A DNA stretch of 64,000 bases from Candidatus Omnitrophota bacterium (GCA_903860135.1 CAIOPG010000006.1:21117-85116); one strand, 5' to 3'; shown: positions 1-54,825, counted from the stretch's first letter. The notes: generated from the sequence alone by a model not told the origin. Numbers and translations: made by a program.

Positions 1-188
1 AGTCCGGAGAATTGGCCGGATCTCTTAAAGATGTGGCCGACACCTACGAACAGGAAATTTCCGAAACAACCCGCTCGGCAACAACCTTGCTTGAACCTCT
101 GCTTATTCTTGTCGTCGGGCTTGTGGTTGGGTTTATTGTCTTGGCCATGCTGTTGCCGATCTTTAGGATGGAGATGTTCGTTTCCTGA
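1..188 (+). CDS. gspF: C-terminal fragment of a T2SS/T4P platform protein (GspF/PilC family). The start lies upstream of the window; frame 3 reads ...LAGSLKDVADTYEQEISETTRSATTLLEPLLILVVGLVVGFIVLAMLLPIF...
   Basis: Translating frame 3 by hand gives the characteristic GspF/PilC C-terminal TM helix and tail. The ORF is open at the window start, with a stop at 186-188. The provided ORF track shows a different, spurious frame here. Confidence 0.55.
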   Translation, partial: SGELAGSLKDVADTYEQEISETTRSATTLLEPLLILVVGLVVGFIVLAMLLPIFRMEMFVS

Positions 189-284
189 TTTTTTCTTTTT
201 ACACAGCCATATTTTTAAGTTATGGTATTTTATTCCAGATGATCGGTCATAACCGTTCACGGATAACCATTAGGGAGGGTTGAT

Positions 285-710
285 ATGATTGACAGTACAA
301 ATATGTCCCGGCACCGGGGGTTTACACTCATCGAGATCATGCTGGTGGTCATTATTATCGGGGCACTGGCCGCGATGATCGTTCCACGCCTGGCCGGGCG
401 GTCGGAACAGGCTAAAGCTTCGGTTGCCAAGGCGGACCTGATGAATATTTCAACGGCCCTTAAGCTGTATGAATTGGATAACGGTTCTTTCCCGTCGACA
501 TCCCAAGGGCTGTCTGCCTTGCGCGAGAAATCTTCTGCCGCGCCGGCGCCAAGGAACTGGAATGGTCCTTATCTTGAGAAGGATCCGCTGGATCCGTGGG
601 GCAATGCTTATGTTTATGCTTCGCCGGGAACGCATCGTCCGGACTATGACCTTTCCTCCAAGGGCAAGGATGCCGCCGCTGCAGACGATGATATTGTTAA
701 CTGGCAGTAG
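285..710 (+). CDS. gspG: Major pseudopilin GspG (prepilin-type N-terminal cleavage/methylation domain)
   Basis: N-terminus MSRHRGFTLIEIMLVVIIIGALAAM matches the classic G|FTLIE prepilin motif. The sequence shows GspG-like length and a C-terminal region. A GGGAGG RBS sits 6 nt upstream. Confidence 0.85.
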   Translation: MIDSTNMSRHRGFTLIEIMLVVIIIGALAAMIVPRLAGRSEQAKASVAKADLMNISTALKLYELDNGSFPSTSQGLSALREKSSAAPAPRNWNGPYLEKDPLDPWGNAYVYASPGTHRPDYDLSSKGKDAAAADDDIVNWQ

Positions 711-1131
711 CTTCTTTCGCCGTCGGTGTGGCATCACCTTCATCGAGGTGATGTTGACCGTTGTGATCCTTTCCGGCGGCTTGGTCGCGCTTTACCGTTC
801 CTTTTTTTCCGCCGTGGATTATCTTGATCGTTTGTCCCTACGGCTTACCGCGATCAACTTGCTAGCAGACCGTGTGGCCATTGTCGAGAAGGACTTTCGT
901 TCTGCCAAAGATTTCGACATAGGTGTGCTCGATGAGGACGTGGTGATCAACAATCATCCGGTCAAGTTTCATTACACCGTTGGCCTCAAGCCTGTGGGGA
1001 CGCTGCTATCGGTCTTTGAACTCGAGATGGGGCTCGGGTGGCAGGATCATGGGCGTAGCACGACGCTTTCCCGCACTGTTTATGTTTCGGGGGTTACGTC
1101 GCTTGTGCCGGAACCCGGGAAGGGGACTTGA
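694..1131 (+). CDS. Minor pseudopilin (GspH/I-like) with a prepilin N-terminal motif; the TTG start is inferred
   Basis: Motif GITFIEVMLTVVILSGGLVAL. The only in-frame start codon near the motif is TTG at 694, which overlaps the gspG end. The exact start is uncertain. Confidence 0.5.
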   Translation: MLTGSSFFRRRCGITFIEVMLTVVILSGGLVALYRSFFSAVDYLDRLSLRLTAINLLADRVAIVEKDFRSAKDFDIGVLDEDVVINNHPVKFHYTVGLKPVGTLLSVFELEMGLGWQDHGRSTTLSRTVYVSGVTSLVPEPGKGT

Positions 1132-1718
1132 TGCGCCGGGGCGGGTTTACGTTCATTGAGGTTATGCTGGTTTCGGCACTGTTCGCGATCCTTTCTGTTT
1201 CGATCTTCAAGTGCCTGCTCGATGGCATCAGACTTTCTGCACGGGCGAAGCAAATGATGTCCGGCGAGGATTCCGTACTTTTGTTCGACCGCCTGTCCTC
1301 TGATCTTCGCAACACATTCTTTTTTTCAAATATAGATTTTTCCGGTGATGAATTAAGCGTGGCATTTCCCTGCGTTATCTGGACACCGGCTGACCGCGTG
1401 AGCCTGCGCGCCGGGGAAGGCGTTGTTGACCAGATTGGCCGGGTTTCTTATGTTTATGATCCTTTCAAGGAAACGCTGGTGCGTCGTCAGGCCAATTATT
1501 CCCAGGCGCTGGCCGGCACCTGGGGACTCGATGAAGTGATGGTCGCCGGCGTTAAATCATTCCGGTTGCGATATTATTTCAAAGCCTCGCCGGAGCCTTC
1601 CACCCATGTCGCGGCGGCAGACGGTATCCCGTCAGGTGTTGAGCTTGAGTTGTCTGTGGTGGCCACGGACGGGACAAAGGTATTCAAACGTTATGTGGCT
1701 GTTCCGGCGGGGGTATAG
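1131..1718 (+). CDS. Minor pseudopilin (GspJ-like)
   Basis: N-terminus MRRGGFTFIEVMLVSALFAILSV. ATG 1131 overlaps the stop of the upstream gene (TGATG). Confidence 0.6.
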   Translation: MRRGGFTFIEVMLVSALFAILSVSIFKCLLDGIRLSARAKQMMSGEDSVLLFDRLSSDLRNTFFFSNIDFSGDELSVAFPCVIWTPADRVSLRAGEGVVDQIGRVSYVYDPFKETLVRRQANYSQALAGTWGLDEVMVAGVKSFRLRYYFKASPEPSTHVAAADGIPSGVELELSVVATDGTKVFKRYVAVPAGV

Positions 1719-2741
1719 ATGACGGCGATGCGGCGGCAAGGGTTTATCCTGATAACAGCACTATGGACACTGGCATTTTTGGCTGTGCTTGCTGTTACAC
1801 TTTTGGCCGGTGTGCGCCAGCGGATATTCCTTTTTCAGAGGATCGAGGATCGGCTGCGTGTCCAGTCTGCCGCCGAGGCCGGAGCCAAGAAAGCGCAGGC
1901 GGTTATCCTTGATGCCATGGAAGATGCCGCGGGAACATTCTCGGCGCAAGTAAAACAGCGTCTGGGCAATAATCCGGCGGAATTTTCCGCCATCGTTGTC
2001 GACGGTGTTTCTGTCGAGGTGGTGCATGAAACACCTGATGCGTTGACGGCGAGCCTTGTGGCGGTGTGGGGAGTGGCGGACGAGCAGTCCAGGTTCAACA
2101 TCAACACCGTTGCGCGCGATGTGCTGGCACGCCTGGCCGCAGAGGTCCTTGCCTGCAACGAGGCTGAAGCCCGCGCGGTTGCTGACGCGGTTGTGGACTG
2201 GCGTGATTACGGACGACATGAAACCGAAGGTTTTTTTAGCGGTGATTATTACAAGAGCCTTGAGTTTCCCTATCCGGTAAAAGAAAAACCGTTTGAGCGT
2301 GTCGATGAGCTTCTCCTTGTGAAAGGGTTTGACCGTAAGATATTTGACCGCCTAGCGCCTTTTGTGACTGTCTATGGTGACGGTCGCGTCAACATCAATA
2401 CCGCGTCGCGACCAGTGCTTATCGCGCTCGGCTTCGATGCCATGCTGGTTGACAAAATCCTCCGTGTCCGTCGAGGCGTAGACAATGTCGAGGCTACGGC
2501 GGACGATCATGTTTTTACCTTCGCCTTTGATATCGCGGCTGAAACGGCCAAGGCCGTGGCGCTGGAGCCGCGCGAGGTCAACCAGATCAATGAGCTGAAT
2601 GCCCGGAATCTGCTGGCCACCGAGTCCGGTATTTATTCTTTTTTAAGCCGGGTGCCTGCGCCTGACGGCGGATACAAGAGGTCTATCAGCTGTGTTTTTA
2701 GTGTATTTGAAAGCAAGGTATTGTACTGGTATGAAAAATAA
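1719..2741 (+). CDS. gspK: T2SS minor pseudopilin GspK-like
   Basis: Motif GFILITALWTLAFLAVLAVTL. Size of 340 aa is typical of GspK. The start immediately follows the upstream stop (TAGATG). Confidence 0.6.
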   Translation: MTAMRRQGFILITALWTLAFLAVLAVTLLAGVRQRIFLFQRIEDRLRVQSAAEAGAKKAQAVILDAMEDAAGTFSAQVKQRLGNNPAEFSAIVVDGVSVEVVHETPDALTASLVAVWGVADEQSRFNINTVARDVLARLAAEVLACNEAEARAVADAVVDWRDYGRHETEGFFSGDYYKSLEFPYPVKEKPFERVDELLLVKGFDRKIFDRLAPFVTVYGDGRVNINTASRPVLIALGFDAMLVDKILRVRRGVDNVEATADDHVFTFAFDIAAETAKAVALEPREVNQINELNARNLLATESGIYSFLSRVPAPDGGYKRSISCVFSVFESKVLYWYEK

Positions 2742-2796
2742 TCAATTTTATGTTGATGCCCTTTAAAGACATAGTCTATAATGTTCGCAACAAAGA

Positions 2797-4293
2797 TTGG
2801 ATACTATGACGCATAAATATAAAAAGTACATTACGATCTCGATCAACCCGGCCAGTGTCAAAGTGGCGCAGATCACATCCGGCGGTTTTGTGGAGAAGCT
2901 CTCCCGGCGCAGCATTTCAGGCGGGGCGGTGGATGCCGTATTACGCGATGCGTTGACAGGGTTTCAGACACGGCAGGCTGGGATCGTATGTGTGATCCCC
3001 GGTGATGTGGCCACTACAAAATTCCTGGATGTTCCTGCCGTTGACAATGACGAGATAGATGCCATCCTTGCTTTGCAGGCGTCGCGCCATACGCCATTTA
3101 GTAAGGACGAGATTTTGACCGGTTACGTCAAGATCCGTTCCCCGCGTGCGAATTTTACCAGCGTTCTTCTGGTGGTGGTTAAACGTCAGATCGTCAAGGA
3201 AAAGATCGCTGTTATGCGTATGGCGGGGCTGGAAGTTGCCGCTGTCACATTTGTGCCCGAAGGGGTAGCCCGTCTTTACGCGCAAGCACTTAATTTTCGC
3301 AAAAATGGTTCTGCTTTTATTGTTGATGTGGATGTGCAGAACACGCATTTTGTTATTTTGGCCGAAGGGACGGCTGTTATGGCGCGCAGTATCCCTGTCG
3401 GGATCGAACAGCTCAAGGCTGATCCGGCCACTGTCGCGAGGATCGCGGCCGAGGCAAAGGCATCAGTTGATGCCTTTGTCCAGGAGGGTGGGGTTCGTCC
3501 GGCCAGGCTTATCCTGACATCCGATCATCCTGCCTTGACAGCCCTGAGCGATCCACTGGCAGAAGCCCTTTTGCTGAAAGCAGAATATTTGCCTTATCAG
3601 AATTTAGCCAAGGGCTTCCCTGGCATGAAACAGCAGATCAACAGGGATTATATTGATGATACCGCCCTTGACGTTCTTGCGGCGGGGGTAACAATACAAA
3701 AGTGCGCAGCTGAACTTTTGCCGCAGGATCTGAAGGATCAGCGGATGGTCGCTGAAAAAGGCGGCGAAACCATGAAAGCAGGTATTCTTGTCCTGATGGC
3801 GTTCCTTTTCATCGGCGCGGGGCTTTTGAGCCGTGTTTATTTCAAGGATCTTTTCTTCAGGCAGAATCTTGTTGAGAAATATGCAGGCCAGAAAAAAGAG
3901 GTTGATCTCCTGGAAAAGATGATCGTCAAGACGGATATTTTACATACGTATATTCAGGATCGTCAAATCCCGCTCGAGGCGATCACCGAGCTTTACAGGA
4001 TCATCCCTGAGGAAATTTATCTTTCGGGTGTCAGCATTGATGAAAAAGGTGAGGTTGCTATCCAGGGCATTTCTGAATCGATGTCACGCGTTTTCTCTCT
4101 GGTTACGGCACTTGAAGAATCGCCACTTTTTGAAAATGTCAAGACCCGGTCGACCACGGCCAGGAAAGATCGCGGTAAGGATGTCGCGGTATTTGAAATT
4201 GCGTTCAAGCTTTCGACAGCCACAAAGGATGCAGGAGTAAAAGACGATACAATCACACGGCAGGGAAACCAAGGAGCGGGCCTTGATAAGTAA
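2797..4293 (+). CDS. PilM-like actin-fold ATPase domain fused to a PilN/GspL-like transmembrane and periplasmic domain (T2SS/T4P inner-membrane assembly protein)
   Basis: N-terminal about 330 aa are PilM-like. A TM segment (MKAGILVLMAFLFIGAGLL) follows, then a PilN-like C-terminal domain. Position is inside the pseudopilin operon. Confidence 0.55.
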   Translation: MDTMTHKYKKYITISINPASVKVAQITSGGFVEKLSRRSISGGAVDAVLRDALTGFQTRQAGIVCVIPGDVATTKFLDVPAVDNDEIDAILALQASRHTPFSKDEILTGYVKIRSPRANFTSVLLVVVKRQIVKEKIAVMRMAGLEVAAVTFVPEGVARLYAQALNFRKNGSAFIVDVDVQNTHFVILAEGTAVMARSIPVGIEQLKADPATVARIAAEAKASVDAFVQEGGVRPARLILTSDHPALTALSDPLAEALLLKAEYLPYQNLAKGFPGMKQQINRDYIDDTALDVLAAGVTIQKCAAELLPQDLKDQRMVAEKGGETMKAGILVLMAFLFIGAGLLSRVYFKDLFFRQNLVEKYAGQKKEVDLLEKMIVKTDILHTYIQDRQIPLEAITELYRIIPEEIYLSGVSIDEKGEVAIQGISESMSRVFSLVTALEESPLFENVKTRSTTARKDRGKDVAVFEIAFKLSTATKDAGVKDDTITRQGNQGAGLDK

Positions 4294-4909
4294 ATTTATT
4301 TCCGGGCTTTCTTCAAATGAACGCAAGATACTTACGGTCGCGTCCTTGTTTGTTCTTTTTGCTCTTTTCGACAGGCTTCTGGTGGGGCCTTCGTTGGGCC
4401 GGATGAAAGAACTCGACGAAAGCATCGCCAAAGAAGAAGATACTGTCCGCAGGAATCTTCGTTTTCTGGGTTACAAGGAGCGCATTGTCGGGCAAGCGGC
4501 CGCTTTCCGTGATTTCTATACGCAAGAGGTGCGCAGTGAAGATGAGGTTATTGCGGATTTCCTGAAAAAGATGGAAGGCATGGGATCGCAGGCGCAGGTT
4601 ACCTTGTCGAAGATATCGCCTGCCGGTCAGGAAGCGCAGAAGGATTATATCAAATATTTTGTGACCATGGATTGTACGGGCAAGCTTGAGAATCTCATGA
4701 CTCTTGTCTATACGATCAACAATGCGCAGGAATTGATCAAAGTTGAGAAAGTCAGTTTTTCCGGCAATTCGCGCGGAGCTGATACCGTCCAGGCTAACCT
4801 GACGGTTTCCAAAATGATCATCGGCGTAGATCCTTCCGTCGAAGCCAAAGCCCTTGTGCATGAAAAAGAGGTTGTCAAGGCCGAGGTCAACGCGGACATG
4901 GCAAAATGA
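4283..4909 (+). CDS. GspM/PilO-like bitopic inner-membrane assembly protein
   Basis: N-terminal TM helix and about 180 aa periplasmic domain. Overlaps the upstream gene by 11 nt. Called by context; direct similarity is weak. Confidence 0.4.
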   Translation: MISKFISGLSSNERKILTVASLFVLFALFDRLLVGPSLGRMKELDESIAKEEDTVRRNLRFLGYKERIVGQAAAFRDFYTQEVRSEDEVIADFLKKMEGMGSQAQVTLSKISPAGQEAQKDYIKYFVTMDCTGKLENLMTLVYTINNAQELIKVEKVSFSGNSRGADTVQANLTVSKMIIGVDPSVEAKALVHEKEVVKAEVNADMAK

Positions 4910-5700
4910 TCCCCTTCTGGCACCGGGCTTTTGCCTTGTGCGTCCTTTTTTTATGGGTATCCTCTGTTTGTGTTTCTGCCCTTCCATTAAGCCGGGAACA
5001 GTTATTTCAGCTGGCCACCATCGCGGCGGGAGAACATCAATTCGAACGTGCCATTGAACTTTTTCAGAAGGTCATTGAGAAAGAGCCTGCGTTCGCGCCA
5101 GCTTATAACGGGATCGGGCTTGTTCATCAATCAGACGAGAATGGTTCGATGGCTGAAGCGCTCCGCTATTTCAGGCTCGCTGTTGACATAGATCCGCAAT
5201 ACATTGAAGGTTGGAATAATCTGGGGCGTACATATTATACCCAAGGGAGTTTTGTAGAAGCGGAGCAGGCTTTTTTGTCCTCACTGCGCCTGAAACCCGG
5301 GCAAACAGATATTGAATTTTCCCTGGGCTGGGATTATCTTCTGGGGCAGTCCCGTCCAGATGAGGCCATTGATTATTTTGATAAAGTGATCGCGCATCAG
5401 GATAATCCCATGATCTATTACGGGATGGGGCTGGCGAATCTCCTTAAAGGCGATCGGTTAAAAGTGATCGAGGCTGTGACGCAATTACGCCGCCACCAGC
5501 GGGAAGAACAGGCTGTCCGCCTTGAAACCATGCTCAGGGAAAATGTCCTGATCAATTCCAAACCGGGGTTGCCATTGGTGACGGGTACGAAAGAGGATGA
5601 GTCATTGTTTGATCGTCAGCTTAAAGAGCTTGAGGCTAAAGGGTATAATGGCCAGGGTAAGGAAGGTATCAAGGTTCGTCTGAAAGGACCTTTATTGTGA
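4906..5700 (+). CDS. Secreted TPR-repeat protein
   Basis: Signal peptide then TPR-like repeats (AYNGIGLVH..., GWNNLGRTYYTQGSFVEA...). ATGA overlap with the upstream gene. Confidence 0.55.
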   Translation: MIPFWHRAFALCVLFLWVSSVCVSALPLSREQLFQLATIAAGEHQFERAIELFQKVIEKEPAFAPAYNGIGLVHQSDENGSMAEALRYFRLAVDIDPQYIEGWNNLGRTYYTQGSFVEAEQAFLSSLRLKPGQTDIEFSLGWDYLLGQSRPDEAIDYFDKVIAHQDNPMIYYGMGLANLLKGDRLKVIEAVTQLRRHQREEQAVRLETMLRENVLINSKPGLPLVTGTKEDESLFDRQLKELEAKGYNGQGKEGIKVRLKGPLL

Positions 5701-6836
5701 AGAAGAACTTTATCGTCTGTGTTGCGCTGGGGACGCGTCCTGAGGCTATCAAGCTTGCGCCTGTGATCATGGCCTTGCGTGCCACCTCGGGGGTCACGGT
5801 GCGCGTGCTTGTCACGGGACAGCACCGTGTCATGATGGACGAGGCGCTGGCGGTGTTTGGCATCACCCCTGATCATGATCTGAATATTATGCGTAAAGGC
5901 CAGGCCCTGTTTGATGTCACCGCACGTATCCTTCAGGGGGTGCCGCGCGTCCTGGCGCAGGAACCGGTTGACCTGATGGTCGTTCAGGGGGACACGGCGA
6001 CCACCTTTGCCTGTGCCCTGGCGGCGTATTATCACCGTATCCCGGTGGCGCATGTTGAGGCGGGGTTACGGACGGGAGATAAATACAGGCCTTTTCCTGA
6101 AGAAGTAAATCGGCGTTTGACCGGTGTCCTAGCAGACCTTCATTTTCCGCCAACGCCGCAAGCAGAGCAGGCACTCTTGCGCGAAGGGGTTGCCCGTCAG
6201 CGGGTGATCATGACCGGCAATACGGTGGTCGATGCGCTTCGCCAGGCGGCCGTGGCCAAACAAGGTTTTACGCATCCGCTATTGAAGACACTCGATGCGT
6301 CTGGCCGCAAGCTGGTGCTGGTGACCTTGCATCGGCGGGAGAGTTTCGGTGATGGGTTGCGCCAGGTCCTGCTGGCCTTGCGGGATATCAGCGTACTGCC
6401 CGGCGTGGATGTGGTGTATCCGGTGCATTTGAATCCGCAGGTGCGCGCGCAGGTCAAGGAAACGCTGGCCGGCGGGAAGGTGCATCTCCTGGAACCTTTG
6501 ACGTATGATCAATTTATTCTTTTGATGAAGAAAGCGCGCGTGATCGTGACGGATTCAGGCGGTATTCAGGAAGAGGCTTGCGCGTTAAGAAAGCCGGTGC
6601 TTATCACCCGTGAGACAACGGAACGCCCGGAGGCTGTCGCGTCGGGGTTTGCGGAACTGCTTGGGTTTGACCGCCCCCGCATTACGGCTGCCGCTGAGCG
6701 ACTCCTGACAGATGAAAAATATTACCGTGAACGCACGCGCCATGTGAATCCTTTCGGTGACGGAAAAGCGTCTGTACGTATCGCCAAGGCGTGTTTGAGT
6801 TACCTTAAAGAAAATCAATCCCGAGGTAAAATATGA
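5697..6836 (+). CDS. wecB: UDP-N-acetylglucosamine 2-epimerase (non-hydrolysing)
   Basis: Motifs VALGTRPEAIKLAPV, VTGQHR, HVEAGLRT, DSGGIQEE. GTG start overlaps the TPR gene stop (GTGA). Confidence 0.9.
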   Translation: MKKNFIVCVALGTRPEAIKLAPVIMALRATSGVTVRVLVTGQHRVMMDEALAVFGITPDHDLNIMRKGQALFDVTARILQGVPRVLAQEPVDLMVVQGDTATTFACALAAYYHRIPVAHVEAGLRTGDKYRPFPEEVNRRLTGVLADLHFPPTPQAEQALLREGVARQRVIMTGNTVVDALRQAAVAKQGFTHPLLKTLDASGRKLVLVTLHRRESFGDGLRQVLLALRDISVLPGVDVVYPVHLNPQVRAQVKETLAGGKVHLLEPLTYDQFILLMKKARVIVTDSGGIQEEACALRKPVLITRETTERPEAVASGFAELLGFDRPRITAAAERLLTDEKYYRERTRHVNPFGDGKASVRIAKACLSYLKENQSRGKI

Positions 6837-7528
6837 TATCCATTGTCGTTCCTGCGTATAACGAAGAAGAGGTTATTGTGCGTTTCCTGGAAGCATGTGT
6901 CCGGGACATCCGGCGCGACCTGCCTTTTGAGATCGTGGTCGTCAATGACGGCAGCCGTGATAATACGCGTGAACTGGTGCGCGGGTTTACGGCCAAGTAC
7001 GCGTTCATCCGTCTCGTGGACCACGAGGTCAACCGTGGCCTGGGGAAGGCACTGGAAACCGGCATCGCGGCGGCGCGCGGGGATGTTATTGTCACCATGG
7101 ATTCAGACCTGACCCATCCGCCGGCCATGATCCGTGAATTGGCAGCCGGCCTCAAGGATGCGGATATCTGCATCGCATCACGTTATGTGAAAGGCGGCGG
7201 CATGAAGGATGTCCCTGCCTGGCGCGTGTGGGTCAGCCGTTTGGCGAACTATCTGTTCGATCTGATCTTCTGGACGAACATCAAGGATCTTTCTTCCGGT
7301 TTCAAGGCATACCGCGCCCAACATCTGAAGAAGGCGCCGATCATGTCCAACGGATTCGAGTGCCAGATGGAGATCATGCTTTATTTTATCAAGAACAAAC
7401 TGCGTTCGCGTGAAATCCCGCTCATGCTCAAGAACCGTGAATTTGGCACGTCCAAGTTCCAGTTTGTCAAGATGGGGATGAAGTATGTGCGCAGCCTCAA
7501 GCGTTTCCTCGTCTACCGCTGGTCATGA
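6833..7528 (+). CDS. GT2 polyprenyl-phosphate sugar synthase (DPM1/ArnC/GtrB-like)
   Basis: Motifs ISIVVPAYNEEE, VVNDGSRDNT, DSDLTHPP. ATGA overlap with wecB. Confidence 0.85.
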   Translation: MISIVVPAYNEEEVIVRFLEACVRDIRRDLPFEIVVVNDGSRDNTRELVRGFTAKYAFIRLVDHEVNRGLGKALETGIAAARGDVIVTMDSDLTHPPAMIRELAAGLKDADICIASRYVKGGGMKDVPAWRVWVSRLANYLFDLIFWTNIKDLSSGFKAYRAQHLKKAPIMSNGFECQMEIMLYFIKNKLRSREIPLMLKNREFGTSKFQFVKMGMKYVRSLKRFLVYRWS

Positions 7529-7529
7529 T

Positions 7530-9182
7530 ATGAACCGGCCTGTTTTTTCATGGTTGACGGTGAGATCTTTTCAGATCGGGCTTATTGCCCTCGGGTTGGT
7601 GTTGCGCTGCATTCATTACGTCGAGAACCGCTCGTTCTGGCAGGATGAGCTATGCCTGGCGCTGAGCATTGTCAACCGTTCGTTCACGGAAATATTCCAT
7701 AACACCCTTCTTTTTCCTGATTTTGCCCAAGCACCGCTGTTGTTTCAATTCATGGTAAAGATCTTTGCCGGTGTGTTCGGCAACAATGAAATGGCACTCC
7801 GGTTTTTTCCGTTTGTGACCGGGGTCGCCGCGCTTTTCCTTGCCCGGCGTTTTTTTAATCGCCTGCTGGCACCCATCCCTGCCACCCTGGCGCTAGGCCT
7901 TTTCGCCCTGGCCGAACCGCTTGTTTATTTTTCAGCAGAACTCAAACCGTACGGCGTTGATGTTTTTGCGGCGTTGTTGGTGTATGAAATGTTTTTTGCC
8001 TTGAAGGAACGCTGGACATTGCGGCATTTGGCTGTTTTTATGGCGGGTGGAGCCTTGGTGATCTGGCTGTCGAATGCCATGCTCTTTATTCTTGCCGGAG
8101 CAGGGCTTGTGTTCGGCCTTGATCATCTGAAGCGGCAGGAATGGTCTAAAGTGCGTCAGCTGGCGATGGCTTATGGTCTATGGCTGGTTAGTTTTTTAAT
8201 CTTGTACAAGGTTTCGTTGAGCGGGATGCTCAATCATGACCTGGTGAGGAACTGGCGTCTGGCAGGCGGGTTTTCGCCCGAACCTGCGTTCTCGTTGGGC
8301 TGGCTGGTGTGGATCGCCAAGGCTTTTCTGGATATGTTCCGTTCACCCTTAGGGCTCGGCTGGACGGGGTTGATGGCGGTCTTCTTCTTCTGCGGTTGCT
8401 GGTTTATTTATCGCCGGGACAGGTTGCTTCTGTGGCTATTAATGGCACCGCTCTTGCTGGTGTTGTCGGCTGGTGCTTTCGACAAGTACCCCTTCTTTGA
8501 ACGACTAGTTCTTTTCCTTGTGCCCGCCGTGCTTGTCATCCTAGCTGAGGGTGTCTGTGGCGTTGCTTTTTCCAGGGTCTGGCAGGGGCGGGCCTGGGGG
8601 TCATGGATCGTTATAGCCGCTGTCCTGTGGTATCCTGTGTCGGCGGCGGCCTGGCAGGCGGTGCATCCGCGCGGGCATGAAGATAACCGTGCGGCCATGC
8701 AGTACCTGACAGATCATTACCGCCCAGGTGACATGGTGGCGATAAGCCCTCAAGCCCAGTATCCATTCTGGTATTACAGCCAGCGCATGGGGCTCACCAG
8801 CCGTTTGCCGATGCATCCGGCGGGGGCATCGGGAGAGCGCGTGACACCCGTGATCCAGCTGTTTCCTGATATTGTGCCTGAATCTGGGCAGGAGATGCTC
8901 GCGTTGCGCCAGACCCTCAGTGTGTATGATGCCGCCGGTTATTATCGTTCTTTCCGGCTGGCTGGGCGCTCGAGTGCCCCTTTGTTTGTCCCCGCGGCAT
9001 CGCCCGCGATCCTCAAAGGCATGGGCCGGGTATGGGTCTTCTTGTCGCATCACAATAATGCCCGTTACCCGTTATTTGTGGATCAGGTGTTTTCACGTGC
9101 CGGAGAGCGGCTGGATTACTTCGAACGGCCTGGTGTTTGTGTTGGCCTTTATGACGTTCCTTTGGCCGATAAGAAAAAGTAA
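7530..9182 (+). CDS. Polytopic GT-C glycosyltransferase of the ArnT/PMT (COG1807-like) family with a C-terminal periplasmic domain
   Basis: More than 10 predicted TM helices. A QDE motif lies in the first loop after TM1. Sits 1 nt after the GT2 stop. ATG at the MNRP codon was chosen over the upstream in-frame ATG at 7485, which overlaps the GT2 gene. Confidence 0.6.
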   Translation: MNRPVFSWLTVRSFQIGLIALGLVLRCIHYVENRSFWQDELCLALSIVNRSFTEIFHNTLLFPDFAQAPLLFQFMVKIFAGVFGNNEMALRFFPFVTGVAALFLARRFFNRLLAPIPATLALGLFALAEPLVYFSAELKPYGVDVFAALLVYEMFFALKERWTLRHLAVFMAGGALVIWLSNAMLFILAGAGLVFGLDHLKRQEWSKVRQLAMAYGLWLVSFLILYKVSLSGMLNHDLVRNWRLAGGFSPEPAFSLGWLVWIAKAFLDMFRSPLGLGWTGLMAVFFFCGCWFIYRRDRLLLWLLMAPLLLVLSAGAFDKYPFFERLVLFLVPAVLVILAEGVCGVAFSRVWQGRAWGSWIVIAAVLWYPVSAAAWQAVHPRGHEDNRAAMQYLTDHYRPGDMVAISPQAQYPFWYYSQRMGLTSRLPMHPAGASGERVTPVIQLFPDIVPESGQEMLALRQTLSVYDAAGYYRSFRLAGRSSAPLFVPAASPAILKGMGRVWVFLSHHNNARYPLFVDQVFSRAGERLDYFERPGVCVGLYDVPLADKKK

Positions 9183-9414: not shown

Positions 9415-9446
9415 AAAACCCTTCGATCTTTTCGAAGGGTTTTTTC
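9415..9446 (+). terminator. Intrinsic terminator serving as the riboswitch expression platform
   Basis: Stem cccttcga/tcgaaggg (9419-9426 and 9432-9439), 5-nt loop, then a run of six T. Lies 54 nt upstream of the 9500 start codon. Confidence 0.7.
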
Positions 9447-9499: not shown

Positions 9500-11140
9500 A
9501 TGGGGCGTTATTTATCGATAACCTTTGCGGCTACAGTCGCAATTATTTCTTTATTTCCTTTACATAATGTTGCGGCGAGGGAAGATATTCCTATGATGAT
9601 GCCGCAGGAACAACCCATGATGCCATTCCCTTATCAAATGCCCGTTAATCCTGGTGTGCCTGTGCCGGCAACGGGGTCTGTTGTGCCGTTGCCCGTGCCT
9701 GTGTTGCCCAAGGGGGATGCCCTGGTTGCCTGGATGGCGTCTAATGTCAGTTCCAAGACAGGCATGTTTTTCAGTTTTCAGGTCTTACCTGAAGAAAAAG
9801 CCGAGATCTACGGTGCCATGGGCGAGGCTTCTTCTGTGCCCGGGATCGTTGAACGCACCATTGTCGAAGAAGGGCTGGATATTTACGATGGCGCTGTCGG
9901 GCAGATCGCGTTGACCGTTGCCGGCGGGGAGGATAAATTAGCAGTGGCCAGGCATCAACTGGATGTGTACTGGTCAGGAAAATTGGAGAGCCTGATCAGT
10001 ATCCGGGCAGGGTATCCTAATTATAATTTTGTTTATGATCCCAAAGATCCGGAGGTCGTGACGTCGTTGCTGACAGACGAGGGCCGGCGCGGATTTATTT
10101 TTCGTATCATCAATGCCAATGGCAACTACCTGGTGCGGGATCCCTTGGACGGCAAGGAACGGATGGCGGGTTTCCCGGAAGCACCGGATCTACACTGGGA
10201 AGACTGGAAGCCGGTTGCCGGAGAGAATGCCTGGATCGTGATCGCGGCCATGCAGTTGTATCACAAAGAGTATTATAAAGCGGATGTGGATCAATACGTT
10301 GCGCCTGAAGGACCTGTCGAACTGCGCCTTGCCGAAGAATTGGCGCGTGCGGCCATGGTCCTGCAATCGGAGACCGGCGGCATAAGGATGGCACCGATAG
10401 GGACGTACCGTGAGAATGAATTTTATTCAACGTCCACCCAGGGCCAGTGGTGGTACAACCAGATTTCGACAGAGAATAATCTTTCCTGGTACAGCGCGTT
10501 CCGGATGCTGTACCGTGTGACCAGCAAAGAGATCTATCTCCAGGCGATGCAGAAGATGGCAGGTTTCTTCAAGCAGGTTTATGATCCGGTAACGCAGACT
10601 TTTTATCAGGGGATGACCTATAAAGCAGGTGTCTGGCAGGTGAACAGCTCGAATTTTGCGGTGGATGTGCAGACCTGGGGTATTTTATCGCTCGGCGCGG
10701 CTACCATTGAAGACTGGTTCGGAGAGGGCGTTGCCTATTCATTCTGGGCGAAGGCGCGGGAATATTCGGGCACCTGTAATGATCAAGGCTTATTGATGGG
10801 CGTGGGGTATACCAAAGAAAAAGGCCGTGTTTCTGTGGAGTGGAGCGCAGGGGCGATCATGGCGGCGCGTGAACTGGCGGTATTCTATCGTAATTCCCAT
10901 CGTGAACTGGCGCAGGCCGCGGGGCACGATGCGGAGCAGATGCGTGTCGGCATGGAATTACTGCGCCGCGACCTCCCGGGAGGCCAGTCTGCTTATGCCT
11001 ATTCATCCAAACGCGGCTGGATCCCTTTTGGCTGGAATTCGCATGACCCGCGTGTCGTCAGCCTGGCGTCGACCGGTTGGATGTTCTTTGTTGACAAGAA
11101 ATTTAATCCTTTTTGGCTCGATGGCAAAGGCCAGGACTGA
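9500..11140 (+). CDS. Secreted hypothetical protein with a Pro/Met-rich linker; possibly an (alpha/alpha)-barrel polysaccharide-active enzyme (weak)
   Basis: Signal peptide MGRYLSITFAATVAIISLFPLHNVAA. AGGAGG RBS. Trp/Tyr-rich motifs (WWYNQISTENNLSWY, AWIVIAAMQLY). No confident family assignment. Confidence 0.7.
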   Translation: MGRYLSITFAATVAIISLFPLHNVAAREDIPMMMPQEQPMMPFPYQMPVNPGVPVPATGSVVPLPVPVLPKGDALVAWMASNVSSKTGMFFSFQVLPEEKAEIYGAMGEASSVPGIVERTIVEEGLDIYDGAVGQIALTVAGGEDKLAVARHQLDVYWSGKLESLISIRAGYPNYNFVYDPKDPEVVTSLLTDEGRRGFIFRIINANGNYLVRDPLDGKERMAGFPEAPDLHWEDWKPVAGENAWIVIAAMQLYHKEYYKADVDQYVAPEGPVELRLAEELARAAMVLQSETGGIRMAPIGTYRENEFYSTSTQGQWWYNQISTENNLSWYSAFRMLYRVTSKEIYLQAMQKMAGFFKQVYDPVTQTFYQGMTYKAGVWQVNSSNFAVDVQTWGILSLGAATIEDWFGEGVAYSFWAKAREYSGTCNDQGLLMGVGYTKEKGRVSVEWSAGAIMAARELAVFYRNSHRELAQAAGHDAEQMRVGMELLRRDLPGGQSAYAYSSKRGWIPFGWNSHDPRVVSLASTGWMFFVDKKFNPFWLDGKGQD

Positions 11141-11258: not shown

Positions 11259-13466
11259 TTGAATATAAGAGTGATAGCGCACAGATGCTTGATGCTTTTT
11301 TTGATGCTGACTTTAGCGGCGTCAGATGTGCGTGTCTATGCGCAGGGAGTTCCCCCACCCGGCACCCGCCTGGCCTTGAGCCCTGTTTTCGCGCCGCCGC
11401 TACTCAAGGGCATCAAGGTGTTCCGCAACGATCCTTTTCGTTTTGATTTCATTTTGGATAAGGGGGATGTCCATCAACCGCTGCCCAGCGAACTTGAAAT
11501 AAAGCGCCTGATCAAATACTTCCTCGCTTCTTTGACGGTGCCCGAGAAAGATTTGTGGGTCAATTTAAGCCCTTATGAAAAAGACCGCATTGTGCCCGAA
11601 GCCTTTGGCCAGACCGAAATGGGGCGTGACTTACTGGCTCAAGACTACATTCTCAAACAGATAACAGCGTCAGTGATTTATCCTGATGAAAAAGTCGGCA
11701 AGGAATTTTGGTCTAAAGTCTATGCCGAAGCTCAGAAACGCTACGGCACCACCGACATCCCCGTCGACACTTTCAACAAAGTCTGGATCACCCCCGCTAA
11801 AGCCACCGTCTACGAACACCAAGACGCCGCCTATGTTGTCGAATCCAGGTTAAAGGTCATGTTGGAGTCCGATTATAAAGCCGCTATAGAAAATAAGGAA
11901 TTCGCACGTAGGGGCGGGTCCGTGACCCGCCCTATTTTATTAAATACGCCCCCAGCGTCACCCGCCCCCGCCGCAGCGTGGGGCGGGCATGGGAGGGGGG
12001 ATGACATCGCCAAACAAGTCCTCCGCGACGTCATCATCCCTATCCTCAACAAAGAAGTCAACGAAGGCCAAAACTTCGCCACCCTGCGCCAGGTCTACAA
12101 TTCCCTTATCCTTGCCACTTGGTATAAGCGTAAAGTCAAAACCAGCATCATGGGCAAGGCGTACGTCGATCAGAAGAAAGTTTCTGGCATTGACATCGCC
12201 GACAAGAACGAAAAAGAAAAGATCTGGTCTCAATATGTTGAAGCTTTCAAGAGGGGTGCTTTTAATCTGATCAAGGAAGAGAAAGACACGACGACTCAAG
12301 AAATGATCCCGCGGCAGTATTTTTCCGGTGGGGCGGATATGTCGATGGAGGTTTTTGAGGTAACAGATGCGGCCATGCCAGCAGAGGTAAATATTGATAA
12401 TTGCAGTATCGTAAATGTTGATGGGGGTATGCTGTTAGTGAATTCCGGTCTATCTAATCGCAAATGGGTAACAACTGATTTATTTGAACACAATCCACGG
12501 AAGTTTATGTATTCTGTAAAAATGTCTGGCCTTGCCAGGCTATTAAAACCACCAGCACAAGGCGATCCAATTTCGTATTCACTTGCTTTGATCAGTGATA
12601 GTTATTTGAAAACATTTAATCGAGGTGGTGGTGGCAATGTTGGATTAGTCTTTGATTTTGCGGATGAGGATGTTCTGGCAATTTTGGCATCGATGAACGA
12701 TATCGCGGCCTTTGATAAGACAGAGGAGACGCAACGTGAATTCATTAAAAAACAATTAAAACGTGATCCTAGTAATGTTATGTATCAAACTATTGTTGAC
12801 AATAGTCCTCCTAGGCAGCTTGCTATTGTGCCTGAAGAATTGATTAGGGCTTCAATCAAGGCAGGAAATAAGAATAATGAAGTAATTGTTAAGAATAATT
12901 TAACTCTGCAACCTAAAGCAATTATCTTGATTGTAAGGTGTCAGGGAGGATCACGTTTGTTTCGGGAAGATGTCGATGCCTTAAAGGTTAATCCAATGTT
13001 AAGTGAGGTCTATTCTGCAATGACAGCTGGGAAATTACCAGTTGTTATTGTCGGTGAAAATGGTTCCCCATTGAAGACTGCTAGGAGAATCTTTAAGCAT
13101 ATGTTTAGGGATCTTCAGGAAACAAGACCGTTCTTTTTTGAAAAGAAGTCTGGCCCATCGCCGGCAAAGTCCGGGTTTATAGGATGGATCGGTGTGTTCG
13201 TGAAGCAAAATCCTTCTGCTATTACACGTATAGATCGTGGCCAGAAGAATAGTGACAATGCCGAGAAGCTTGGCGGTATCGACCTTGATCCGGCCAAGAT
13301 CGACTTAAGTACAAAGAATTCCGGCGGCGAAATTGCGTTCAACCTCGACCCCGCGATGCTCGCCCGTATGCAGCATGCTTCTGGGATTTCGCCTGTTATT
13401 GTCAGTGTGCACCCGATGGAAAGCCTTTCGGCATTTCTGGGGATTGTGAAGCCGGGAGGGCGGTAG
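11259..13466 (+). CDS. Secreted protein of an uncharacterised paralogous family (paralog A, 735 aa)
   Basis: Signal peptide ending VYAQ. A roughly 300-aa N-terminal domain is highly similar to the 54826 gene (LIKYFLASLT, EEDLWVNLSPYE, GTTDIPVDTFNKVWIT, LKVMLESDY, EVNEGQNFA, PR.YFSGG). The last about 40 aa also match (DPAMLARMQ / DPIMVAEFQ). The central and C-terminal portions are AT-rich. TTG start; GTG at 11271 or ATG at 11292 are alternatives. Confidence 0.8.
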   Translation: MNIRVIAHRCLMLFLMLTLAASDVRVYAQGVPPPGTRLALSPVFAPPLLKGIKVFRNDPFRFDFILDKGDVHQPLPSELEIKRLIKYFLASLTVPEKDLWVNLSPYEKDRIVPEAFGQTEMGRDLLAQDYILKQITASVIYPDEKVGKEFWSKVYAEAQKRYGTTDIPVDTFNKVWITPAKATVYEHQDAAYVVESRLKVMLESDYKAAIENKEFARRGGSVTRPILLNTPPASPAPAAAWGGHGRGDDIAKQVLRDVIIPILNKEVNEGQNFATLRQVYNSLILATWYKRKVKTSIMGKAYVDQKKVSGIDIADKNEKEKIWSQYVEAFKRGAFNLIKEEKDTTTQEMIPRQYFSGGADMSMEVFEVTDAAMPAEVNIDNCSIVNVDGGMLLVNSGLSNRKWVTTDLFEHNPRKFMYSVKMSGLARLLKPPAQGDPISYSLALISDSYLKTFNRGGGGNVGLVFDFADEDVLAILASMNDIAAFDKTEETQREFIKKQLKRDPSNVMYQTIVDNSPPRQLAIVPEELIRASIKAGNKNNEVIVKNNLTLQPKAIILIVRCQGGSRLFREDVDALKVNPMLSEVYSAMTAGKLPVVIVGENGSPLKTARRIFKHMFRDLQETRPFFFEKKSGPSPAKSGFIGWIGVFVKQNPSAITRIDRGQKNSDNAEKLGGIDLDPAKIDLSTKNSGGEIAFNLDPAMLARMQHASGISPVIVSVHPMESLSAFLGIVKPGGR

Positions 13467-46179: not shown

Positions 46180-46351
46180 CTTATAGCCGATAAAGGTAAA
46201 CCCGGGGAAACCCGGGGACACAAAGCGACAGACCTAATGTGCGCCATCGGGTAGTTGGGTGAAGGTGTTGATGGGGTTTTGTGGTTGGCGTAAGATGGTG
46301 GCTGCGTTGCCGAAGCGCGAGGGGAGATTCCCCAGCTTTTATCGGCTATAG
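46180..46351 (+). promoter_or_regulatory. Second c-di-GMP-I (GEMM)-like structured RNA candidate, with no obvious downstream gene
   Basis: GGUAAACccgggGAAAcccgggGACACAAAGCgacagaCCUAAu...CGGGUAGuUgGG...GUUGAUGG parallels the Vc2 motif blocks. A 15-bp outer stem pairs cttatagccgataaa with tttatcggctataag. The insertion is larger than in the canonical aptamer. Confidence 0.45.
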
Positions 46352-46363
46352 TTGATCTTGAAA

Positions 46364-46394
46364 TAAAAAAGGGAGCCGTTTGGCTCCCTTTTTT
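46364..46394. terminator. Bidirectional intrinsic terminator (A-run, GC stem, T-run)
   Basis: aaaaaaGGGAGCCgtttGGCTCCCtttttt. Ends the + strand structured-RNA unit and the convergent - strand ompA/LysM gene. Confidence 0.75.
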
Positions 46395-46412
46395 GTGGTC
46401 AGGAATAATATT

Positions 46413-47423
46413 TTATTCGATCGGGATAATGATAACCGTGCCCTTTTTCAGCTTGTTGGGATTCTTGATGCGGTTCTGGTTGATCTCATAAAGATATTTC
46501 CAGCGGTTGCCGTTGCCCATCTCATTCTTGGCGATCTTCCAGAGGGAATCATTGGGCTGAATCGTGTATTCACGTGTTGAAACATTCGGAGCGGACTCCA
46601 GGTTTTCTTTCTGCTCCATCGTGAATTTGTTTGGATCCTGGTTTTCAACAACAGCATCGGCCGGGATCTGGTCGGCGGGGACATTGAATTCCTCGACTTC
46701 GGCGATCATGAACTGGGCGTTTCTGTCTTTCTGCATGCCGGCCAGATCTTTTACCGGGGCCACAGCATCGAGCTTGCCGCGGGAAACGATCTTGATGCGT
46801 TCTTCGGCGATGCCACTGCGCAACATATAACCCTTGACGGCATCACTGCGTTTCTTGCCCAGCTTGAGGTTGTATTCATCTGAACCGCGCGCATCGCAAT
46901 TGCCTGTAATAAGGATGGATGCTTCGGGATTTTTCTCGAGCGTCTTTACCGCTTTGCTCAGGATAGGGATGTGGTCATCGCGCAATTCCGCTTTGTTGTA
47001 ATCAAAGTAAATTTTGACATTCCGGATGATCTTTTTAATGAGCAGCGATGCTTTGGGAGCAGCTGCCTGGGGTTCCACCGGTTTGACTTCCTCATTGTTC
47101 TGTCCATCATTGGCTTGGTAGTCATAGATCACTTTAAGTACATAAACGTAGCCACGGTTGCCCCAGTCTTTCTTGACTGAACCAGCCTGTTTGGGCCACC
47201 ACCAGAAACCGCCGCGGGCATCCTTCACCGGAGCCGGTAAGGCATCGGTGGGCCACCAGCTGAAGCGTTGCTGAAGGACCTTTAAATCACCGTCGCGCTT
47301 TGCCTCGCGCGCCGCCTTGGTAACAAACTGCGCATGGGCGGTGGTTGGCAGTGTCAGTACGGCTGCAAAAACCGTCAGGCATACCAATAAAACATTGCGG
47401 GAAAAACTGGAACTTTTGTTCAT
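46413..47423 (-). CDS. OmpA-family protein with a C-terminal LysM domain
   Basis: Signal peptide MNKSSSFSRNVLLVCLTVFAAVLTLPTTAHA. OmpA_C motif NCDARGSDEYNLKLGKKRSDAVKGYM. LysM (YTIQPNDSLWKIA...GTVIIIP). The start is chosen at the MNKSSS codon. Confidence 0.8.
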   Translation of the reverse strand: MNKSSSFSRNVLLVCLTVFAAVLTLPTTAHAQFVTKAAREAKRDGDLKVLQQRFSWWPTDALPAPVKDARGGFWWWPKQAGSVKKDWGNRGYVYVLKVIYDYQANDGQNNEEVKPVEPQAAAPKASLLIKKIIRNVKIYFDYNKAELRDDHIPILSKAVKTLEKNPEASILITGNCDARGSDEYNLKLGKKRSDAVKGYMLRSGIAEERIKIVSRGKLDAVAPVKDLAGMQKDRNAQFMIAEVEEFNVPADQIPADAVVENQDPNKFTMEQKENLESAPNVSTREYTIQPNDSLWKIAKNEMGNGNRWKYLYEINQNRIKNPNKLKKGTVIIIPIE

Positions 47424-47524
47424 AAGAACCCCTTTGATGATATTTAAAATATAAGATAGGTTTGATAATATCATATTTTCAAGAAAGCGGAATAAAAGTT
47501 TTGGTTTTGTGGTATAAGAGGAGT

Positions 47525-48061
47525 ATGGATTTTCAACAAGCATGGGAAGAAACCCTGAAAAATACACAGATCGTGCGCCGGCGTGTTTCCTCTTTACATA
47601 CGTTCGACGATACCCGTGTGCCGTATATGTTTTTATCCCCTTCTTTAATCAACGACGGGGATACGGTTGTGCGTAAAGGGGAAGTGGTGGTGCAGAAGCC
47701 GTCGTTGATCCTTCCTCCCAATATGCCCCGTTTTGACGGTTTTGATTTCGGGCAGGAAGCGGATGCGGATCAGGGGGCGGTCGTCAGTTTTCTCATGATG
47801 CGCGGCATATCTTTCCCTTCGATGAAATACAACAATACAACGCATTCCCTTGATGTTTTTGAGGGTGGGATTGACCGTGCGGTGTCATTCTTTGCCAATC
47901 AACTTGAGCGTGAGGAAAATGTGTCCTGCGGCCTTGTCACGGGTCATGAAGAAACCTGGCCTTTTTCCATCCTTATTTTTATTTGTGCCCAGGTCGCGCG
48001 CAATAGTGAATTTGACCTTAATCGCCTGATGGACGATTATCGCCGCCATCATCCAGACTAA
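47525..48061 (+). CDS. Hypothetical cytoplasmic protein
   Basis: ORF with an AGAGGAG RBS. No recognisable motifs. Confidence 0.4.
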   Translation: MDFQQAWEETLKNTQIVRRRVSSLHTFDDTRVPYMFLSPSLINDGDTVVRKGEVVVQKPSLILPPNMPRFDGFDFGQEADADQGAVVSFLMMRGISFPSMKYNNTTHSLDVFEGGIDRAVSFFANQLEREENVSCGLVTGHEETWPFSILIFICAQVARNSEFDLNRLMDDYRRHHPD

Positions 48062-54724: not shown

Positions 54725-54825
54725 GTTTTCGTCATTATTTTCTCAAATTAGATTAGTTGTCATTCGCCCAAAAAAATTTGGCTGAAAGAAATTTTCTTTC
54801 AAGTTATTTAATAAAAGGGGAAGAT

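Follow-up and report, generated by a model that had tools for sequence, protein, structure and literature searches.

Three-component glycosylation systems consist of a polyprenyl-phosphate glycosyltransferase of family GT2, a GtrA-type flippase and a membrane glycosyltransferase of the GT-C fold, and an acidic motif in the first loop is typical of GT-C enzymes. ArnC/ArnT, Gtr, Rgt and CsbB/YfhO decorate glycans or lipids of the cell envelope, and protein glycosylation by GT-C enzymes has so far comprised actinobacterial O-mannosylation and the action of TfpW on pili. In Streptococcus mutans, the Pgf proteins (the GT2 PgfS, the epimerase PgfE and the membrane proteins PgfM1 and PgfM2) carry out protein O-glycosylation. 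Here we describe an operon at the start of a 64,000-nucleotide (nt) stretch of DNA from a Candidatus Omnitrophota bacterium (GCA_903860135.1, CAIOPG010000006.1:21117-85116; the window), in which the genes of a pseudopilus resembling that of a type II secretion system (T2SS) run into a gene for a tetratricopeptide repeat (TPR) protein and then into wecB, a GT2 gene and a GT-C gene. Our tentative reading is that these last three genes, the sugar module, may form a pathway of the three-component type for the transfer of a single sugar in the periplasm, with a protein of the secretion machine as the likeliest acceptor.

The module resembles the three-component systems GtrA/GtrB/GtrX, ArnC/ArnT, CsbB/YfhO and PpgS/Rv3779 in that a GT2 similar to DPM1, GtrB and ArnC is encoded beside a GT-C enzyme whose first outer loop contains an acidic motif, and in that a nucleotide-sugar-modifying enzyme, here WecB, accompanies the pair. 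It differs from them in having no gene for a GtrA-like flippase, in a GT2 without the C-terminal membrane helices of GtrB and ArnC, in a GT-C without a significant sequence match to any solved GT-C, and in its position within a T2SS-like operon and not in a glycan locus. The likely sugar also differs; it would be N-acetylmannosamine (ManNAc), for which we found no lipid-phosphate donor described in the literature. The locus follows the known GT2 plus GT-C scheme, with a protein, a glycan or a lipid as the candidate acceptor.

The Pgf operon, which acts on surface proteins, likewise pairs its GT2 with a nucleotide-sugar epimerase and a GT-C-like membrane protein, whereas PgfE is a 4-epimerase and not a 2-epimerase, the organism is Gram-positive and there is no link to type IV filaments. 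O-mannosylation by Ppm1/DPM1 and PMT (GT39) enzymes in Actinobacteria and eukaryotes differs as well, because the GT-C of the window has no MIR domains, falls below the cutoff of PMT_2 and shares ~9% identity with Pmt4, and because the coupling of wecB points to an N-acetylhexosamine, not to mannose.

TfpW is a GT-C enzyme that arabinosylates the group IV type IV pilins of Pseudomonas aeruginosa Pa5196 and PA7 from a lipid-phosphate sugar; tfpW lies directly downstream of pilA, TfpW has its own C-terminal TPR domain, and its D-arabinofuranose is supplied via DprE1/E2 (bioRxiv 10.1101/2020.04.19.049825). Judged by this published description, the GT-C of the window resembles TfpW in its tie to type IV filament genes, in its predicted use of a lipid-phosphate sugar made in the cytoplasm and in the acidic motif of periplasmic loop 1. 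In contrast to TfpW, however, it lies 6.8 kb from gspG and after the assembly genes, and its C-terminal domain is of the alpha/beta type without a TPR repeat, a separate TPR protein being encoded upstream. The sugar supply differs too, with WecB and a DPM1-like GT2 in place of the DprE1/E2 pathway, and TfpW serves a pilus, whereas the operon here is that of a T2SS pseudopilus, has assembly genes of the PilMNO type and lacks a nearby secretin gene.

The PglL/TfpO O-oligosaccharyltransferases, with which the initial annotation had contrasted the module, share with it a periplasmic glycosylation tied to type IV filament proteins. They belong to the Wzy_C/O-antigen ligase-like family and transfer oligosaccharides en bloc from a lipid diphosphate, rather than a single sugar from a lipid monophosphate, and the operon contains no such gene. 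The contrast is a fair one between different types of enzyme, but its novelty is weakened by TfpW, which is already a GT-C pilin glycosyltransferase using a lipid-phosphate sugar. Our literature search found no paper on this module or arrangement, nor on glycosylation specific to pseudopilins.

Results

Enzymes of the sugar module

The enzyme identities first proposed for the module, a UDP-GlcNAc 2-epimerase, a DPM1/ArnC-like GT2 and an ArnT/PMT-like GT-C, were upheld by profile scores, alignment and fold. By its profile scores wecB clearly encodes a non-hydrolysing UDP-GlcNAc 2-epimerase, with UDP-ManNAc as the predicted product. Residues 2-226 of the GT2 align with the catalytic and interface-helix part of the Pyrococcus Dol-P-Man synthase 5mlz (1.5e-28), with DSD replacing the DAD motif and SRYVKGG retained, and the protein also matches ArnC (2e-15) and GtrB (1e-12). 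It is by this homology (alignment of the whole protein to 5mlz, the DxD and SRYVKGG motifs, and the matches to ArnC and GtrB) that the GT2 is taken as a putative polyprenyl-monophosphate-sugar synthase. It has no transmembrane segment, and human DPM1 and mycobacterial PpgS likewise have no membrane helices. Its top NCBIfam matches (PgfS, ArnC and PpgS) are all below cutoff, the best being PgfS (1.1e-22, 80.6 versus 500 bits), and its close homologues carry the database label "dolichol-phosphate mannosyltransferase".

Homologues of the GT2 form a tight Omnitrophota group (71-100% identical), followed by a spread of 45-54% identity in other lineages. Three homologues from these other lineages (~50% identical) were looked up, and an Epimerase_2 gene was present in all three clusters and directly adjacent in two. 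This recurring pairing is the best evidence that the GT2 is tied to the product of the epimerase, although in one of the clusters the epimerase may serve a diacetamido-uronic acid pathway. Two of the three homologues adjoin GT-C-like polytopic membrane proteins with an early DD/ED motif, which are not homologous in sequence to the GT-C of the window, and a pilus context was seen in none of the three clusters.

The AlphaFold model of the GT-C, made with 21 homologues, shows a GT-C fold at high confidence (pLDDT 91.4, pTM 0.89). A Foldseek search returned ALG9/12, STT3/PglB and ArnT at TM ~0.5, and the model matches Pmt4, ALG12, AglB and ArnT about equally; the modelled fold thus appears to favour neither a protein, a lipid nor a glycan as acceptor. 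Asp39-Glu40, which follows the first membrane helix and lies in the first periplasmic loop, is invariant in 22 of 22 sequences, so that the enzyme combines the GT-C fold with the acidic first-loop motif of the three-component systems. The C-terminal periplasmic alpha/beta domain comprises ~150 amino acids (aa; about residues 400-545). When PDB chains were searched with the GT-C profile, nothing meaningful matched in sequence, and the enzyme was placed only by comparing folds; there was no match in NCBIfam and no MIR domain in a Pfam scan. The match to PMT_2 remained below cutoff (22.9 versus 26.1 bits), whereas the variant encoded by the related locus L018 passes it (34.5 bits).

Junctions and extent of the operon

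A single tight row of plus-strand genes fills the first 9.2 kb of the window (Table 1). The layout first described, a pseudopilus gene row running into TPR-wecB-GT2-GT-C with overlapping or abutting codons, was confirmed by the open reading frames and their junctions. The PilO/GspM-like gene and the TPR gene overlap by ATGA at 4906, the TPR gene and wecB by GTGA at 5697, and wecB and the GT2 gene by ATGA at 6833; the GT2 stop codon TGA (7526-7528) is followed after 1 base by the ATG at 7530, which is likely the true start of the GT-C although the longest open reading frame begins at 7485. Codons thus overlap or almost abut throughout from the PilO/GspM-like gene to the GT-C gene, and they also overlap or abut at the junctions farther upstream, apart from spacers of 55 nt between gspK (2741) and the PilM-PilN fusion (PilMN, 2797) and of 32 nt between gspF and gspG. 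The span originally given for the whole arrangement, 4906-9182, holds the TPR gene to the GT-C gene, while the pseudopilus genes sit at 1-4909.

These overlaps of stop and start codons signal one operon and co-transcription, and no special bond between its two halves. The 317-nt spacer after 9182 contains a promoter-like site, a cyclic di-GMP (c-di-GMP)-I riboswitch and a terminator hairpin, and therefore the operon ends with the GT-C gene. GC content and GC3 of the module equal those of the rest of the genome; the module is therefore not a recent import, and recent horizontal transfer was ruled out by base composition.

Conservation among Omnitrophota

The names of homologues agree in placing the organism among Candidatus Omnitrophota. 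Relatives were gathered by looking up homologues of the GT-C and by scanning species-representative genomes for PilMN, which together gave 11 Omnitrophota loci; in one of these (L015) the contig ends before the region past the TPR gene, leaving 10 operons that can be judged. The order gspG...PilMN-PilO-TPR-wecB-GT2-GT-C recurs in six species-level loci (L001/L011, L003/L013, L010, L012, L014 and L016), whose GT-C proteins are 53-77% identical to that of the window, and many of the same stop/start overlaps recur with it. The metagenome contig L021 (77%) has the order TPR-wecB-GT2-GT-C and is too short for the T2SS genes. The arrangement is therefore real and beyond chance, and the conservation of gene order in related genomes, which the initial annotation had named as a check, was borne out within this Omnitrophota clade.

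Two more distant genomes, L018 and L019 (PilMN ~50% identical), keep the GT-C together with a different GT2. In both, the TPR gene is followed by a GT-C gene (36%) and then by a gene for a 268-aa GT2 (27%), which belongs to another subfamily than the GT2 of the window, and wecB is missing. These two loci suggest that the GT-C is the constant partner and that the sugar supply varies. Within the close group, the identities of the GT-C (77, 60, 59, 56, 55 and 53%) track those of PilMN (82, 60, 58, 58, 56 and 57%), and the sugar module has been inherited vertically there.

Each of the 10 related operons whose contig reaches the region has the TPR gene, also where the sugar module is absent, and the gene belongs with the secretion genes. 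Its product carries a signal peptide but lacks a lipobox cysteine, and the C-terminal motif GIKVRLKGPL is conserved. We considered and rejected the idea that this protein is a lipoprotein pilotin like PilF, PilW or Tgl, since the lipobox cysteine is missing and matches to the PilW/Tgl profiles are far below cutoff.

Past the module, genes for an STT3/AglB/PglB-type oligosaccharyltransferase of 813-843 aa and for a trypsin-like protease converge on the end of the operon in three relatives (L001 13911-17100, L003 12190-15427 and L018 15849-19142). A further GT-C, which contains TPR repeats, is encoded in L001 (11956-13548). A search for STT3 in the window found none.

Proposed pathway and its acceptor

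From the gene identities, folds, catalytic motif, operon layout and conservation described above we infer which sugar is used, which lipid carries it, that it is flipped and, above all, what accepts it. In the proposed pathway, WecB would convert UDP-GlcNAc to UDP-ManNAc in the cytoplasm, and the peripheral DPM1-type GT2 would load a single sugar, most likely ManNAc, onto polyprenyl phosphate at the inner membrane face. The lipid-linked sugar would then be flipped by some flippase, and on the periplasmic side the GT-C, by means of its Asp39-Glu40 loop, would pass the sugar on to an acceptor. We consider this enzymology probable. The acceptor would most likely be a protein of the secretion machine, be it a pseudopilin, the periplasmic TPR protein or cargo, given that module and pseudopilus genes are co-transcribed and that a GT-C has been kept there over deep divergence; such a link of the acceptor to the pseudopilus is possible, and we propose it with considerably more reserve than the enzymology.

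Several observations weigh against this reading. The module is absent from two of the 10 judged operons (L017 and L020), in which the T2SS and TPR genes are intact; the machine therefore does not need the module, which is an accessory part of the operon. Close spacing is the norm in this genome: among the 43 pairs of same-strand neighbours in the window, 22 overlap or are separated by at most 2 nt, 10 of them with 4-nt overlaps. The overlaps that had been read as a link to glycosylation are thus present, but about half of the same-strand pairs of the window are arranged in the same way. In addition, a sigma-70-like promoter match inside the TPR gene (5378-5406; TTGATA, 17 nt, GATAAT; 10/12, by a consensus that may not be that of this phylum) could give wecB-GT2-GT-C a transcript of its own, uncoupled from the pseudopilus genes. 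The operon contains no gene for a GtrA-like flippase, and its tight packing leaves no room for one. A 113-aa gene 3' of the GT-C gene in relatives was considered as a candidate flippase and rejected, its product being soluble and acidic.

The wider GT-C family points the same way. A GT-C profile search among 1.8 billion proteins gave 36,309 cluster representatives, 6,434 of them at E<=1e-30, and the T2SS-linked enzymes are a small branch of a large, general and uncharacterised family. Of the best 80 metagenomic relatives, L021 and L022 alone are arranged like the two types of Omnitrophota locus; near the remaining 78 (26-36% identical) there is no GspE/F/G/K, PilMN or other T2SS or pilus gene, and a GT2 adjoins about a dozen of these relatives. 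The sampled neighbourhoods of distant relatives are glycan-synthesis clusters with GT1/GT4, GT2, methyltransferase, sugar epimerase, FemAB-like and LPG-synthase genes.

The acceptor proteins themselves gave no signal. Ser/Thr columns that are kept with the module and lost in L017 and L020 numbered 0-1 per protein in GspG, GspJ, GspK, PilMN, PilO and the TPR protein, not above control pairs or other residue classes, and no bacterial N-glycosylation sequon or site was seen to be conserved in the GspG alignment inspected by eye. A Ser/Thr-rich stretch before the PxP motif of the GspG loop, which is presumably usual in GspG as in PulG and EpsG, is PAGDP in L017, and we gave this no weight because it concerns one genome only. 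Taking together the two operons without the module, the 78 distant relatives without pilus or T2SS genes, the generality of codon overlap and the null result of the Ser/Thr scan, the specific proposal of the initial annotation that pseudopilins or secreted substrates are glycosylated was not supported.

Much of this evidence fits a module that decorates a glycan or lipid of the envelope, such as lipid A, the lipopolysaccharide core or another surface polymer, and that owes its place in the operon to inheritance and to the shared expression of envelope functions. Most of the distant relatives of both the GT-C and the GT2 are in glycan-synthesis clusters without pilus genes, the T2SS operons of L017 and L020 dispense with the module, coupling is the genome norm, ArnT fits the GT-C model as well as the protein-modifying enzymes do, and glycans or lipids are the acceptors of most GT2 plus GT-C pairs that have been characterised. 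Relatives also have lpxB and a Gfo/Idh/MocA oxidoreductase gene ~8 kb downstream; their lpxB is, however, on the opposite strand and beyond four unrelated genes, and the operon itself has no gene for lipopolysaccharide or polysaccharide. Above all, the place directly after the TPR gene has been kept in the six species-level loci and L021, and by a differently composed module in the two deeper ones. An envelope glycan or lipid is therefore a possible acceptor in its own right, nearly as likely as a machine protein or its cargo.

It is less likely, though it deserves consideration, that the acceptor is a protein and the donor is not ManNAc. The GT2 would then, as in the Ppm1/PMT systems, use a GDP- or UDP-hexose to charge polyprenyl phosphate with mannose or a different hexose, and wecB would be merely co-transcribed and serve another pathway. 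Because a Dol-P-Man synthase is the best homologue of solved structure and its signature motifs are kept in the GT2, the sugar could indeed be a hexose, and this is a further point against the pathway as we have drawn it; the mannosyltransferase labels of close homologues agree with it, L018 and L019 have a GT-C and a GT2 without wecB, and no paper was found that describes a polyprenyl-phosphate ManNAc donor. On the other hand, wecB is translationally coupled on both sides, to the TPR gene and to the GT2 gene, and the pairing of GT2 and epimerase recurs at ~50% GT2 identity in three unrelated contexts. Since the GT2 of L018 and L019 is of a different subfamily, the missing wecB of these loci says little.

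Finally, the space after the TPR gene might be a variable region that gathers lineage-specific cargo, so that adjacency would have no functional meaning, which would account for riboswitch-controlled genes after wecB-GT2-GT-C in the window, for the 113-aa gene, second GT-C and convergent STT3 and trypsin-like protease genes in L001, for GT-C and GT2 followed by STT3 in L018, for an SNase nuclease gene and a gene for a 1,238-aa protein in L017 and for a 222-aa gene and then a PIF1 helicase gene in L020, but is improbable because the module directly overlaps the codons of the TPR gene and is not set apart from it, matches the genome in base composition and has diverged in step with the T2SS genes (GT-C versus PilMN) in the close group.

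The secretion machine

Table 1 Genes of the pseudopilus operon and sugar module at the start of the window
Feature	Coordinates	Strand	Evidence
gspF 3' end (inner-membrane platform protein)	31..252	+	75% identical to C-terminus of L001 GspF; window begins within gene
gspG, major pseudopilin	285..710	+	TIGR01710 152 bits (cutoff 88.85); Pfam T2SSG 1.4e-32
Minor pseudopilin, GspH/I-like	694..1131	+	Prepilin-type motif RRRCG/ITFIEVML; start uncertain
GspJ-like minor pseudopilin	1128..1718	+	N_methyl 23.5 bits (over cutoff); T2SSJ and TIGR01711 below cutoff
GspK-like minor pseudopilin	1719..2741	+	T2SSK_1st 58 bits (cutoff 26.2); NF037980 3.4e-28, below cutoff
PilM-PilN fusion, GspL counterpart	2797..4293	+	PilM_2 42.8 bits and PilN 55.1 bits, both over cutoff
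PilO/GspM-like assembly protein	4283..4909	+	PilO 24.6 bits (cutoff 22); NF040576 GspM 5e-10, below cutoff
Periplasmic TPR protein	4906..5700	+	TPR families; signal peptide
wecB, non-hydrolysing UDP-GlcNAc 2-epimerase	5697..6836	+	TIGR00236 439.8 bits (cutoff 210.15); Epimerase_2 2.4e-107
GT2, DPM1/Ppm1-type polyprenyl-phosphate glycosyltransferase (putative), 231 aa	6833..7528	+	Alignment to 5mlz
GT-C fold membrane glycosyltransferase, 550 aa	7530..9182	+	Predicted structure; fold match

The operon has the major pseudopilin of a T2SS, by a GspG match well over the profile cutoff, and GspG is 73-87% identical across the relatives. Only the 3' end of gspF is inside the window, and the relatives have gspE (MshEN plus T2SSE) and gspF directly upstream; in L018 ATP synthase genes precede gspE. 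Of the minor pseudopilins H/I/J/K, the GspK domain scores over the Pfam cutoff, GspJ remains under the cutoffs and the fourth, encoded by the gene after gspG, is unassigned to a Gsp class and weakly conserved among the relatives. The candidate starts of this gene (TTG 694, ATG 688 and ATG 670) all lie within the end of gspG, and a start at about 694 agrees with the need to keep the G/ITFIE prepilin motif. It overlaps the gspJ-like gene at 1128-1131, the gspJ-like stop abuts the ATG of gspK, and PilMN and PilO overlap by 11 nt.

In place of GspL and GspM the operon has the PilM-PilN fusion and the PilO-like protein, whose GspM match is below cutoff, and no GspC was among the profile matches. 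No GspD secretin gene was found within 10 kb on either side in the relatives; one may be present elsewhere in the genome. A query search of the window found no Tad-type secretin. A Peptidase_MA_2 gene lies between gspF and gspG in relatives (L001 1833-2657, L003 1844-2668 and L018 6605-7447) and is missing from the 32-nt gap of the window. Away from the operon, the window encodes a lone T2SSE-family ATPase of 453 aa (PilT/PilB-like, 50706-52067) between M16 peptidase and CorA genes.

A Tad-type system is known to adjoin the giant genes of Omnitrophota (bioRxiv 10.1101/2023.11.21.568195). This "T2SS-like locus" was considered as the same system and rejected, because it is of the Tad/RcpC type and hence a different one. 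Two GT-C homologues (~31% identical; L004 10802-15300 and L006 9511-15313) lie ~5 kb upstream of a Tad-type locus with rotamase, RcpC, secretin and TadZ/CpaF genes, with metabolic genes in between.

Neighbouring genes and c-di-GMP elements

The c-di-GMP-I riboswitch after the operon (RF01051, 9304-9393, 65.6 bits, E 1.3e-10), with its terminator hairpin at 9415-9443, is directly upstream of genes for two unknown proteins with signal peptides, of 546 aa (9500-11140) and 735 aa (11259-13466). MshEN is a known c-di-GMP receptor domain (PMC5013675). Since the relatives' GspE contains MshEN and a c-di-GMP riboswitch lies next door, the secretion machine and the neighbouring genes may respond to one common signal. 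Another riboswitch, of the c-di-GMP-I-GGC type (RF03167, 61 bits), and the two-way terminator hairpin after it (46371-46395) occupy positions 46186-46395; beyond them lies a convergent OmpA/LysM gene (46413-47567, minus strand), and no downstream plus-strand gene is evident.

A greatly expanded Omnitrophota family, with at least 3,338 clusters and several paralogues per genome, is defined by the N-terminal ~360 aa of the 735-aa protein. This N-terminal part is fused to very varied middle and C-terminal domains (GNAT, methyltransferases, zeta toxin, kinase, NUDIX, radical SAM, GT2 and TPR), and the family shares the C-terminal motif GGIDL...PVI...FLG; AF2 modelled the N-domain poorly (pLDDT 58). 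Besides the two members in the window (11259-13466 and 54757-56436), there are members in L012 (20507-21424), L014 (20428-21345), L017 (13642-17358) and L019 (19449-20516). As the family recurs just downstream of the T2SS operon in several genomes, it could be cargo of the machine. The second member in the window, a paralogue 49% identical to the first, is followed by a gene for a 1,165-aa protein without a Pfam match and then by that for an outer-membrane transporter of the ShlB/FhaC two-partner-secretion type (59986-61746).

Discussion

The tentative reading of the operon, with a machine protein as the likeliest acceptor, carries different meanings according to where the sugar goes. With lipid A or a polysaccharide as acceptor, the genes would be an ordinary envelope-modification module riding on a secretion operon. 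In its strongest form, which we regard as unlikely, a T2SS-type machine would have its own module that glycosylates pseudopilins or cargo from polyprenyl-phosphate ManNAc, a donor not described so far. If this were true, it would be the first case of a type II secretion machine with a glycosylation pathway of its own, and the sugar might shield the machine or the secreted proteins; the type of sugar would vary between lineages, as it does with modifications of surface antigens.

Omnitrophota are thought to be predatory or host-dependent nanobacteria, and the phylum is known almost only from metagenomes. Should a pseudopilin or secreted protein prove to be the acceptor, the range of protein glycosylation by GT-C enzymes would extend to type II secretion machines and a new lipid-linked donor would be added, and the module would offer a handle on the cell-surface biology of the Omnitrophota.

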